In this document: positions 46,096 to 49,000 of the stretch, in pieces
Position numbering within the stretch: position 1 is the first letter of the stretch
Layout of the letters: each line of letters starts with the position of its first letter
Sequence record: MW349128.1
Source: Staphylococcus phage Machias
Reading direction: 5' to 3' (one strand)
Length of the DNA stretch: 64,000 nucleotides
The notes under the pieces: model-generated
The model's database searches: none
The model's input: the letters and a program-made list of their open reading frames with translations, nothing else
Told to the model about the DNA's origin: nothing
Program-made: the position numbers and the translations under genes

Positions 46096-49000
46096 ATGGC
46101 AGAGATTTTTAAGAAAGATTTAAAAGAAGTAGTTCATGATAATATGATGATTTATTTTAATGAGATTAATACAAATCGTCAAATACCAGATGTTAGAGAT
46201 GGGTTGAAACCTATTCAAAGAAAAATATTATATATTATGTATAAAAATGGTTATAGATCAGATAAAAAATTTGCTAAATCTGCTAGAATTGCTGGTGATA
46301 CAACTATATTACATCCACATAGTAATGATGGTATTTATGATTCTGCGGTTAATATGATTACACCATTTTCTATGAACCAACCTTTAATTGAAGGTCATGG
46401 AGCTTTTGGTTCTATTACAGGAGCATCAGCAGCCGCTTCACGTTATTGTTTAACAGGAAATCATATTGTGGAATTATCTGAAGGTGAACTAAGACGTATT
46501 AAAGACATTGTACCTAATACAGATTTAGATACTACACATAGCATTGATAAAGTAGTAAAAGACTTTAGAAGAAAATCAGTAAAAGCTAGTAAGTTCTTTA
46601 ATTCAGGTAAACATAAAGTAATGGAGTTAGAAACTGAATCTGGTAAAAATATTAAAGCAACATTAAATCATCCTTTATTAACTGTAATCAAACATTCAAC
46701 AAAAGGATTAGATTTTAAATGGAAAACAATGGATGAAATTAAAGAAGGAGACTACTTAATCAATAGAACTATGATTAAGAATGATCTTAAAGATTTTAGA
46801 AGTAAAAATCTTAATGAAAATGAAAAAGAAAGTTTTAGAAAATGGGGAGAACTTTTATCTCAAAAATATTTTAAAGATACTTTAGATCCTGAATACGGAA
46901 TTTTAATGAAATCTATTGAGACTGAAAAAATATTACCTGATAAAATTCTTGAAGCTTGTTTAGGATATAAAAGAGAATTTTTAATGGAATTATTCAGACA
47001 AGATAGTGAGATTGTAGATAATATCGGTTTAATTATAGAAAGTTATAGTAAAAAATTTATGCAAGAAATATCTGTATTATTATCTCAATTTGGAATATAT
47101 TCTGTAATAAATGAATTCAGTACTGATACGTTTAGACTACAAATACAAGATATACATTCATTGAAAAACTTAGTTAATCATTTAATTAAAGATGATGAAC
47201 TATATAATGATAAAATCGAAAGTATAATAAATATGTACAGAGATGATAAACCTAATAAATATCAAATTATACCTTTCTTATCTGAAGTGTTAGATGAAAG
47301 AAAAATGACTAATTACTTTTATCCAGAATTATTCAATACAAGAAAGAATTTCTTAAATAATTTTAATTTATTAGAGGAAGAGTATGGTATTGAAATATTG
47401 GATAATGATCACTTACTATTATTTATATCTAAGTATTTAGATAATAACACATATTTTGATAAAGTTAAATCTATTGAATCTTTAGATGAAGAAGAAACTG
47501 TATATTCAATTAGAGTTGATACTGAAGATCACTCATTTATGGCTGAAGGTTTTATTCACCATAATACAGAGATGAGATTGAATAAATTCTCAGAAAGAAA
47601 TTTATTAGACAATATCAATGATAATGCAGTTAATATGGTTAAAAACTTTGATGGATCAATGTTAGAACCTTTGGTATTACCTGCTAAATTGCCTTATATA
47701 TTAGTTAATGGTAGTTTTGGTATTGGTGGTGGTGGACATCGTTCTGATTTACCTCCACATGATATTAATGATGTAGTTAACATTACTATTGATAGACTTA
47801 AAAATCCTAACAAACAATTAAAGACATTAATTAAAGATAATAATTTTAGACCACAATTCCCTTATGGTGGAGAGGCTTATGTAGATGATCTAGAGAAATA
47901 TTATCGAACAGGAAAAGGATCAATGTTATTAAGATCAGTTATTGAAAAAGATGAAAGTAAATCTACATTAACAATAACAGAAATTCCTTATAATGTAACT
48001 TTAGAAAGAATGATTGAAGCTATTAAAGAAGCTTATAAAGAAGAAAGATTAGATGGACTTAAGAATATTTCTGATGGGTCTCAAAAAGGTAATGTTAATT
48101 TAATATTACAATATACAAAATCAACAGACTTAGATTTAGCACTTAATCAATTATATAAAATTAAAACTGTAACTTCTAGAGTTAATTTTGATATTAAATT
48201 GGTAGACAATAATAAACTTATTGAAACTAATTTATTAAATATTCTTGATAGATGGATTGAATTTAGACAGTCTACTGTTAAACGTATCAAGTCATTTAAA
48301 ATTAAAGATTTAAGAAGTCGTATTCATATTATAGAAGGATTGCTAGTTGTATTAGATTCTAAGAATATAGATCAATTAATTAAGATTGTTAAGTCTGGTA
48401 AAGGTAAAGAAGATATTATTGATACAGTTAGTAAGAAATTTAATATATCACATGCTCAAGCAGCATATGTAGCTGATATGAAGCTATATACAATTAATAA
48501 TCTTGAAGTAAATAAACTTATTGAAGAAAAGAATGAAAAAGAAGAAATAGTTAATTCTGAAATGGAATACATGAAAGATGTTAATAAACTAAAAAATCTT
48601 ATTGTGGAAGAATTAAAAGAAATTAAGAAAGATAAAAATACACTTAAGAGAGCTAGAATTACTAAATATTCAAATTTAGATTTTAAATCAGATAATAAAG
48701 ATTTATTAGTTAAAGATGAAGAATTCATGGTCATTATAACTAAACATGGTAAAATTAAAAAGGTTAAAGCTGAAGTGAGTAAACCTCAGAAACGTAATGG
48801 TAAAGGTATTAGTATTGGCAAATTATCTGATGGAGATGTGCCTCTAAATATATTCAATGCTAATAGTAAAGATAATTTATTCTTAGTAACAGATCAAGGT
48901 AAGTTATTCTATGATAAGGTATATGAATTCCCAGAGATTAAATCATTAAATAACTTTGGTAAAGATATTACTAGATTTACTAAAAAAGAAAATATCGTTA

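Follow-up and report, generated by a model that had tools for sequence, protein, structure and literature searches.

A predicted class-1 intein with a probably decayed LAGLIDADG endonuclease at the catalytic tyrosine of GyrA in Staphylococcus phage Machias

The window under study is a stretch of 64,000 nucleotides from Staphylococcus phage Machias (sequence record MW349128.1). It encodes a homolog of the gyrase A subunit, gyrA, as a precursor in which an N-terminal extein, an intein and a C-terminal extein share one open reading frame (Table 1). By sequence comparison, the insert is a class-1 intein lodged precisely after the catalytic Tyr of the GyrA homolog and before the Thr-Glu pair that comes next, and it is predicted to splice. 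As read from the DNA, the codon of the catalytic Tyr117 (TAT, 46444-46446) is followed directly by that of Cys1 of the insert (TGT, 46447-46449), and the terminal His-Asn pair (CAT AAT, 47560-47565) by the codon of Thr+1 (ACA, 47566-47568). The insert thus spans 1119 nucleotides or 373 amino acids, and its removal leaves a product of 811 amino acids. A first-pass annotation of the same DNA had proposed an insert of this length and position and a spliced product of this size, and proves exact to the base. Very probably, the element is a canonical GyrA intein of class 1 that would still splice, carries a decayed endonuclease, and is homologous to the mycobacterial GyrA inteins, with which it shares the insertion site. 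The gyrA annotation should accordingly read as a precursor with an 811-residue mature GyrA.

Table 1. Positions of gyrA, its intein and the interrupted gyrB within the window. Residue numbers are those of the intein.
Feature	Position	Strand	Basis or remark
gyrA precursor open reading frame, 1184 amino acids	46096..49650	+	Open reading frame list, Pfam, NCBIfam; coordinates include the stop codon
N-extein, 117 amino acids, ends ...GASAAASRY	46096..46446	+	Alignment to S. aureus GyrA, ending at the AAMRY Tyr
Intein, 373 amino acids, Cys1 to Asn373	46447..47565	+	Pfam, NCBIfam, match to 1am2, AlphaFold2 model, Foldseek
Splicing (Hint) domain, N-terminal half, residues 1-110	46447..46776	+	41% identity to Mxe GyrA intein residues 2-114
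Block A, Cys1; block B, T72-L-N-H75	46660-46671 (block B)	+	Alignment of the splicing halves
Putative recombination patch inside the intein, ~180 nucleotides, limits approximate	~46650..46830	+	Sliding-window divergence
LAGLIDADG motif 1 relic, WGELLSQK, residues 133-140	46843..46866	+	Alignment with 44 other sequences, motif statistics
Predicted stump of LAGLIDADG subdomain 1, residues 141-177	46867..46977	+	Helices only; spacing, alignment gap, model
Retained LAGLIDADG subdomain 2 (predicted), residues 172-246	46960..47184	+	Alpha-beta-beta-alpha-beta-beta-alpha unit in the model
LAGLIDADG motif 2, FLMELFRQDS, residues 178-187	46978..47007	+	Family alignment
Helical tail of the endonuclease region, residues 247-334, with family-conserved IPF motif	47185..47448	+	Model, predicted local distance difference test (pLDDT) 52-88
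Splicing domain, C-terminal half, residues 335-373	47449..47565	+	43% identity to the C-terminal segment of the Mxe GyrA intein
C-extein, 694 amino acids plus stop, begins with Thr+1 in TEMRLNKF	47566..49650	+	Open reading frame, Pfam, S. aureus GyrA alignment
gyrB exons	~35829-35891, ~37545-39003, ~39172-39940		Conserved GyrB motifs split at the joints
TnpB / IS605 OrfB gene, 401 amino acids	36150-37355		Pfam HTH_OrfB_IS605, OrfB_IS605, Cas12f1-like_TNB

The exteins are those of a gyrase. Pfam DNA_topoisoIV (PF00521) matches the precursor with an expectation value (E) of 9.4e-91 in two stretches that are split by the intein, and six DNA_gyraseA_C blades (PF03989) in the C-extein make up a six-bladed C-terminal domain. 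The NCBIfam GyrA models score about 500 bits, below their equivalog cut-offs of 877-902, and by this measure the product is therefore a divergent phage GyrA. The GyrA box, QRRGGKG, sets gyrase apart from topoisomerase IV; we find QKRNGKG in the first part of the C-terminal domain, and this sequence agrees with the consensus at five of seven positions. When the intein is removed in silico, the 811-residue sequence finds GyrA as its best matches in PDB and aligns across the junction with S. aureus GyrA (6qx2/6fqm) in a single ungapped stretch (E ~2e-80), with AASRYTEMRL paired to AAMRYTEARM. This check run agrees with the earlier expectation that the two extein halves be contiguous with GyrA around the active-site Tyr. 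The spliced sequence also aligns in a single stretch with the uninterrupted GyrA of Listeria phage LPJP1. The Tyr of the AASRY/AAMRY motif is the residue with which GyrA cleaves DNA (Tyr123 of the S. aureus protein, Tyr122 of the E. coli protein).

Several lines of evidence identify the insert as an intein. Pfam Intein_splicing (PF14890) recognizes it with 83.6 bits (cut-off 35.8; E 1.6e-23) and NCBIfam intein_Nterm (TIGR01445) with 38.6 bits (cut-off 24.5), while intein_Cterm (TIGR01443), at 14.8-15.5 bits, falls slightly below its cut-off of 15.6. The best match among solved structures is the Mycobacterium xenopi (Mxe) GyrA intein (1am2, E 1.8e-23), which aligns in two pieces corresponding to the two splicing halves, with Thr72 and His75 numbered alike in both proteins. 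Block F reads VYSIRVDTEDHSF, and block G reads GFIHHN, followed by Thr (GFIHHN/T). The first-pass annotation had recognized blocks A, B, F and G and the +1 Thr, and had placed the intein between the Tyr of AAxRY and the following TE; the scan with hidden Markov models, run as a check, and the structural match bear this out. In seven phage alleles the four blocks are unchanged apart from conservative substitutions in block F, where the Asp and His are kept, and Cys1, Thr72, His75 and the HN/T junction are invariant.

We modeled the intein with AlphaFold2 from an alignment of 45 sequences: the intein of the window, a fragment from the same clade of Staphylococcus jumbo phages (P0001, Madawaska-like) and 43 GyrA inteins inserted at the same site outside this clade. 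The model has a pLDDT of 86.6 and a predicted template modeling score of 0.89, and places the beta strands of the N-terminal splicing half at residues 7-107. Its top Foldseek matches are TliVMA (7qss), PI-PfuI (1dq3), PI-TkoII (2cw7), PI-SceI and the Mxe GyrA intein, with E values of 1.5e-15 to 9.5e-13 for the endonuclease-bearing inteins and the Mxe GyrA intein; further matches include the Mtu RecA and Ssp DnaB inteins and the Hint domain of Hedgehog. The predicted structure and its Foldseek matches thus support a Hint fold for the insert.

In the unspliced precursor of 136 kDa, a 43-kDa domain interrupts the DNA-cleavage site one residue past the catalytic Tyr, so that the protein would be unable to work as a gyrase. 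The four steps of splicing have been established experimentally for the Mxe GyrA intein, whose branched intermediate has been solved (4oz6). That intein (1am2, 4oz6) has the same -1 Tyr, Cys1, Thr72/His75, His-Asn and +1 Thr as the phage intein. By analogy, the phage precursor would first undergo an N-S acyl shift at the bond between Tyr117(-1) and Cys1, aided by Thr72 and His75 of block B. The hydroxyl of Thr+1 would then attack the thioester in a transesterification to yield a branched ester, Asn373 would cyclize with the help of His372 to release the intein, and an O-N acyl shift would form the native AASRY-TEMRL bond of the 811-residue GyrA. All residues needed for this reaction are present and invariant, and we infer that it occurs.

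Could the insert instead stay in place, either disrupting gyrA and leaving it non-functional, or being tolerated by a protein that works nonetheless? No experimental evidence of splicing was found for this phage clade. Against such a scenario, the catalytic splice residues are all intact and do not vary among the seven alleles, and the frame of 1184 codons is open in every complete allele. The exteins, moreover, are under strong purifying selection, with ratios of nonsynonymous to synonymous substitution rates (dN/dS) of 0.02-0.17, as estimated by the simple Nei-Gojobori method. The N-extein alone gives 0.02-0.06 and is 96-100% identical in amino acid sequence among the seven phages. As judged from the alignment, a 43-kDa domain one residue past the catalytic Tyr would also be incompatible with the GyrA fold of 6qx2. 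A non-splicing insert, in either form, is therefore extremely improbable.

The region between the splicing halves is what is left of a LAGLIDADG endonuclease. We compared the motifs of the window intein in an alignment with 44 further sequences, of which 43 are GyrA inteins that occupy this insertion site outside the clade. Gln139 takes the place of the catalytic Glu of motif 1 (family consensus LGxxVSEG). In motif 2, with the consensus FLxxLFEGDGS, Asp186 is kept, but both Gly residues are lost and RQDS stands in place of EGDG. A regular-expression search finds both motifs intact in 44 of 74 large same-site inteins; the window has neither. The two catalytic-acid positions lie 47 residues apart in the window, compared to a median of 100 (10th-90th percentile 95-104) in the 44 intact same-site inteins. 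The window intein is therefore some 53 residues short, and what it lacks corresponds to the beta-sheet core of subdomain 1. The stretch from the second acid to the end of the intein measures 188 residues, against a family median of 190, so that the tail is of full length.

The model tells the same story. It contains no strands in residues 108-187, and the endonuclease region has four beta strands, equivalent to one subdomain. For the retained subdomain 2, DSSP applied to the model assigns helices to residues 172-186, 202-213 and 236-246 and strands to residues 188-190, 194-199, 220-225 and 228-233. Pfam LAGLIDADG_3 (PF14528) scores 18.7 bits in the window (E 0.0021), under its gathering score of 22.5, compared to 25.7 bits in P0001 and 62-95 bits in intact relatives; the related intein P0003 (see below) yields no score for this model. 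The deletion in subdomain 1 is common to all seven alleles compared. A monomeric LAGLIDADG enzyme requires both of its subdomains for binding and cutting its target; with the core of subdomain 1 deleted, the nuclease is therefore most likely dead, as far as alignment and model can tell.

The first-pass annotation had described the central part as at best a degenerate LAGLIDADG domain and had considered a mini-intein. Its diagnosis of degeneration stands, given the loss of about 53 residues and of the first catalytic acid, and the motif it quoted, FLMELFRQDSE, is motif 2 of the family, with the relic of motif 1, WGELLSQK, located upstream. A mini-intein, of about 130-200 residues and with no endonuclease between the Hint halves, is ruled out by the length of 373 amino acids and by a folded central domain of about 220 residues. 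Most likely, then, the element is a large intein with a crippled endonuclease and not an active homing element.

How does this intein compare with those already known? Knowledge of inteins at the active-site Tyr of GyrA dates back to the 1990s, and one of them, the Mxe GyrA intein, is in standard use for protein engineering. Mycobacterial GyrA inteins are inserted directly after the catalytic Tyr, at the site used in the phage; they reside in actinobacterial hosts, whereas the present intein belongs to a phage of Bacillota. The Mxe intein is a natural mini-intein of 198 amino acids with its endonuclease wholly deleted, while the phage intein retains about 220 residues of the endonuclease region. 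The precursor is colinear with NF038098, the NCBIfam model for intein-containing mycobacterial GyrA, and its endonuclease and C-terminal region match with E 3.7e-38. The overall score of 535 bits is far under the cut-off of 1850, and the precursor is therefore not a member of that model; on sequence, we regard it as a distant relative of NF038098 proteins. With PI-PfuI (1dq3), TliVMA (7qss) and PI-SceI (1vde) the phage intein shares its layout, with a LAGLIDADG insert that splits the Hint domain (Foldseek E 1.5e-15 to 2.7e-08, query-normalized TM-score 0.44-0.64). Each of those three possesses a pair of complete LAGLIDADG subdomains and a pair of catalytic acids; the phage intein has one of each.

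The closest relatives of the gyrA gene are found in sister phages. DNA identity is 98.2% to vB_StaM_PB50, 96.2% to AH12, 82.7-83.4% to LY01, S6, PALS_2, DC4, Madawaska and MarsHill, and 79% to SA1. Over a 24-kb stretch the best match is PB50 as well, at 96% identity across 76%, and the window comes from a distinct isolate. The GyrA intein of this phage group is already known. The PB50 record (OR770614) labels the gene 'intein-containing DNA gyrase subunit A', and the Madawaska and MarsHill records carry explicit intein features. In MarsHill gp228 the intein was placed between Y117 and T492 and a LAGLIDADG domain was noted, while the AR9 homolog was described as having two introns and no intein (Korn et al., bioRxiv 10.1101/2020.12.14.422802). 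The same GyrA intein was reported in DC4 (PMC10638138). The inteins of PB50, MarsHill/Madawaska and DC4 agree with that of the window in gene, insertion point (Y117/C ... N/T) and architecture, and differ in length, with 374 residues in the sister phages and 373 in the window. Amino acid identity is 99.7% to PB50, 95% to AH12, 75-78% to the group of S6, Madawaska, MarsHill, PALS_2, DC4 and LY01, and 65% to SA1. The papers on MarsHill/Madawaska and DC4 consider the central part a predicted homing endonuclease, which we find to be half deleted. As a discovery the element is of small value, as GyrA active-site inteins are long known and the phage allele has been described; what is new here is that the endonuclease remnant is a one-subdomain relic, yet conserved under purifying selection.

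We examined how widely the insertion site is used. An exhaustive HMMER search over 1.84 billion cluster representatives returned 494 matches at E<=0.001. The pattern RY/C...HN/TE is present in 100 of the best 150 of these 494 representatives, with a median intein length of 416 amino acids. Carriers of an intein at this site include a cellular bacterium, in which housekeeping genes flank the locus (L009), and a Nanoarchaeota metagenome-assembled genome. A second, uncultured jumbo-phage lineage is represented by a 274-kb contig with a tubulin gene nearby (L008; ENA ERZ2916268 NODE_11, 8001-11927), whose gyrA product has a LAGLIDADG_3 match on record. Another carrier, likewise uncultured, is a syntenic relative of the Staphylococcus phages with a GC content of 25% (L007; Logan ERR13865851, 4593-8114). 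Its intein, P0003, is 37% identical to that of the window and the nearest relative outside the clade, and has also lost the Asp of motif 2. A phage collection yielded 209 records with a gyrA/parC homolog of the junction region, and among the matches listed the match is split at this point only in nine Staphylococcus jumbo phages. The closest uninterrupted phage allele has 51% identity and belongs to Listeria phage LPJP1. The intein is present in each of the nine known clade members and is therefore fixed in the clade. A word-indexed homolog search with the intein returned only two same-clade fragments and is uninformative on distribution.

The base composition of the intein points to long residence. 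GC content at third codon positions (GC3) is 0.13 in the intein and 0.12 in the exteins, and by this sequence measure the intein is therefore an old resident of gyrA. A patch within it has a different history. Here, the window and PB50 are only 3-7% diverged from Madawaska, S6 and LY01, as opposed to 23-28% on either side, while AH12, otherwise a close relative, is 14-18% diverged from the window. We read this pattern of divergence as recombination between lineages within the intein. The patch does not include the flanks and therefore gives no pointer to homing. Conflict between intein and extein trees was considered as a sign of homing and rejected: with three deep lineages, unrooted trees cannot conflict and only branch lengths differ.

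Might the intein nevertheless be fully mobile, with its LAGLIDADG domain cutting the intein-less gyrA of co-infecting phages, into which it is then copied by double-strand-break repair? A homing endonuclease has been predicted in the literature (bioRxiv 10.1101/2020.12.14.422802; PMC10638138), and LAGLIDADG_3 is detectable in the window at E 0.0021 and above cut-off, at 25.7 bits, in the Madawaska-like P0001. The invariance of Asp186, a dN/dS of about 0.2 for the endonuclease domain, and a recombination patch that attests to exchange of DNA between lineages within the intein would all fit with mobility. Such an enzyme would, however, have to work without about 53 residues of subdomain 1, with Glu changed to Gln, without either Gly of motif 2 and, according to the model, with a single subdomain, and in the window the LAGLIDADG_3 signal stays under the Pfam gathering score. 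It would also have no target, because nine of nine known clade members carry the intein. Finally, the patch is confined to the intein and excludes the flanks, which is not a signature of homing. Continued mobility is thus very unlikely. For a GyrA intein with a decayed endonuclease, inheritance would be vertical, accompanied by ordinary phage recombination, with homing most likely lost. The intein would persist because only a precise deletion leaves a working gyrase. The one-subdomain relic would place the element at a late, fixed stage of the homing cycle.

Several observations weigh against the interpretation of the central domain as a dead relic inside a splicing intein. Purifying selection on this domain, with a dN/dS of 0.18-0.22 between three deep lineages (the group of the window, the Madawaska group and SA1; bootstrap 95% confidence interval 0.09-0.33), is as strong as on the splicing domain (0.25-0.31 for its N-terminal half and 0.14-0.27 for its C-terminal half); these estimates are rough, given an AT-rich genome with a GC3 of 12% and synonymous divergence (dS) near saturation (~1). 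Within it, the retained subdomain 2 has values of 0.10-0.18, and Asp186 is invariant in the alleles compared. A functionless relic would not obviously show such constraint. The evidence for a missing subdomain is a sequence alignment together with a predicted structure, and the papers on MarsHill/Madawaska and DC4 only predict splicing, no experimental report of which was found for this phage clade.

Why would a crippled domain be conserved? The simplest explanation is that an insert that misfolds would prevent the splicing of an essential enzyme. The constraint could thus stem from selection to keep the fold compatible with splicing, or else from a retained or new activity. One such activity would be a new job for the endonuclease relic, such as temperature- or redox-conditional maturation of GyrA or the binding of DNA or protein, so that the intein serves as a regulatory switch. 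The crippled domain is indeed as constrained as the splicing domain (0.18-0.22), and in the compared alleles it shows no further indel of more than one residue across a dS of about 1. At 37 °C, MarsHill-like phages neither plaque nor propagate efficiently (bioRxiv 10.1101/2020.12.14.422802), and this poor growth suggests that some essential step of the cycle is temperature-sensitive. Nothing, however, ties the temperature phenotype to gyrase, and the purifying selection is explicable if the fold must stay compact for the Hint halves to meet. In addition, P0003, the closest outgroup intein, shares only 37% identity and retains less of the domain. We deem a new job of this kind most unlikely. 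Highly improbable, too, is the specific proposal that the half-deleted domain controls the timing of phage gyrase activation, for example through temperature- or redox-dependent splicing, and contributes to the lack of growth at 37 °C. Under the preferred reading of a decayed endonuclease, the conserved relic offers a small, testable case of a known puzzle, namely that fixed inteins keep their endonuclease domains.

The partner gene gyrB, located upstream of gyrA, is interrupted as well (Table 1). Its joints split conserved motifs, EGLEAVRHR/MYVG... and ...TSDAD/DDGLHI.... In the first interruption (about 1.65 kb), the TnpB gene is preceded by an intron-like core that lies at the 5' end, a layout that resembles an IStron; the second measures about 170 nucleotides and has the same core. 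Because they share this core, the two interruptions are, on sequence, related to each other. Rfam does not report a group I intron, either at the gathering threshold on the whole window or at E<=1 on 35700-39400. The first-pass annotation had spoken of two introns in gyrB and of three different selfish elements in the two subunits. Two interruptions with an intron-like core do divide gyrB into three pieces, yet they are not recognized as group I introns by Rfam, nor are they different, since both share the core and one carries TnpB. The interruptions vary among sister phages: gyrB has none in DC4 and a single intron in Madawaska, and the match to PB50 begins only with exon 2. The TnpB-bearing part has no near-identity (megablast) match in PB50 or DC4 at this position.

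A 20-mer taken from the gyrB interruptions, TTGTTCAACGACTAAATATA, occurs in five exact copies, all on the plus strand, at 13622, 35995, 39087, 51520 and 51971, against a chance expectation of 0.03 copies. The 20-mer tags small intron-like elements that form a family, with two members in or near the gene for a viral RNA polymerase beta subunit downstream of gyrA. In LY01 (OR836606, L003) gyrA contains, besides the intein, a second split near residue 913, with an insert of about 2 kb (5741-7734), after which the remainder of the gene resumes at 7734-8555. This insert encodes a TnpB-like protein of 401 amino acids that is 26% identical to the TnpB in the gyrB of the window.

Two free-standing HNH-type genes are present in the window. 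One, at 32601-33965, encodes 454 amino acids that match NUMOD4 and, below threshold, HNH_3. The other, an HNH_3 gene at 44167-44601, encodes 144 amino acids, and its annotation in Madawaska and PB50 is that of a homing endonuclease. The possibility that this upstream gene mobilizes the intein in trans was considered and rejected: nothing supports it, and the gene lies 1.5 kb away with three genes between. Mobile-element genes are dense in this part of the genome.

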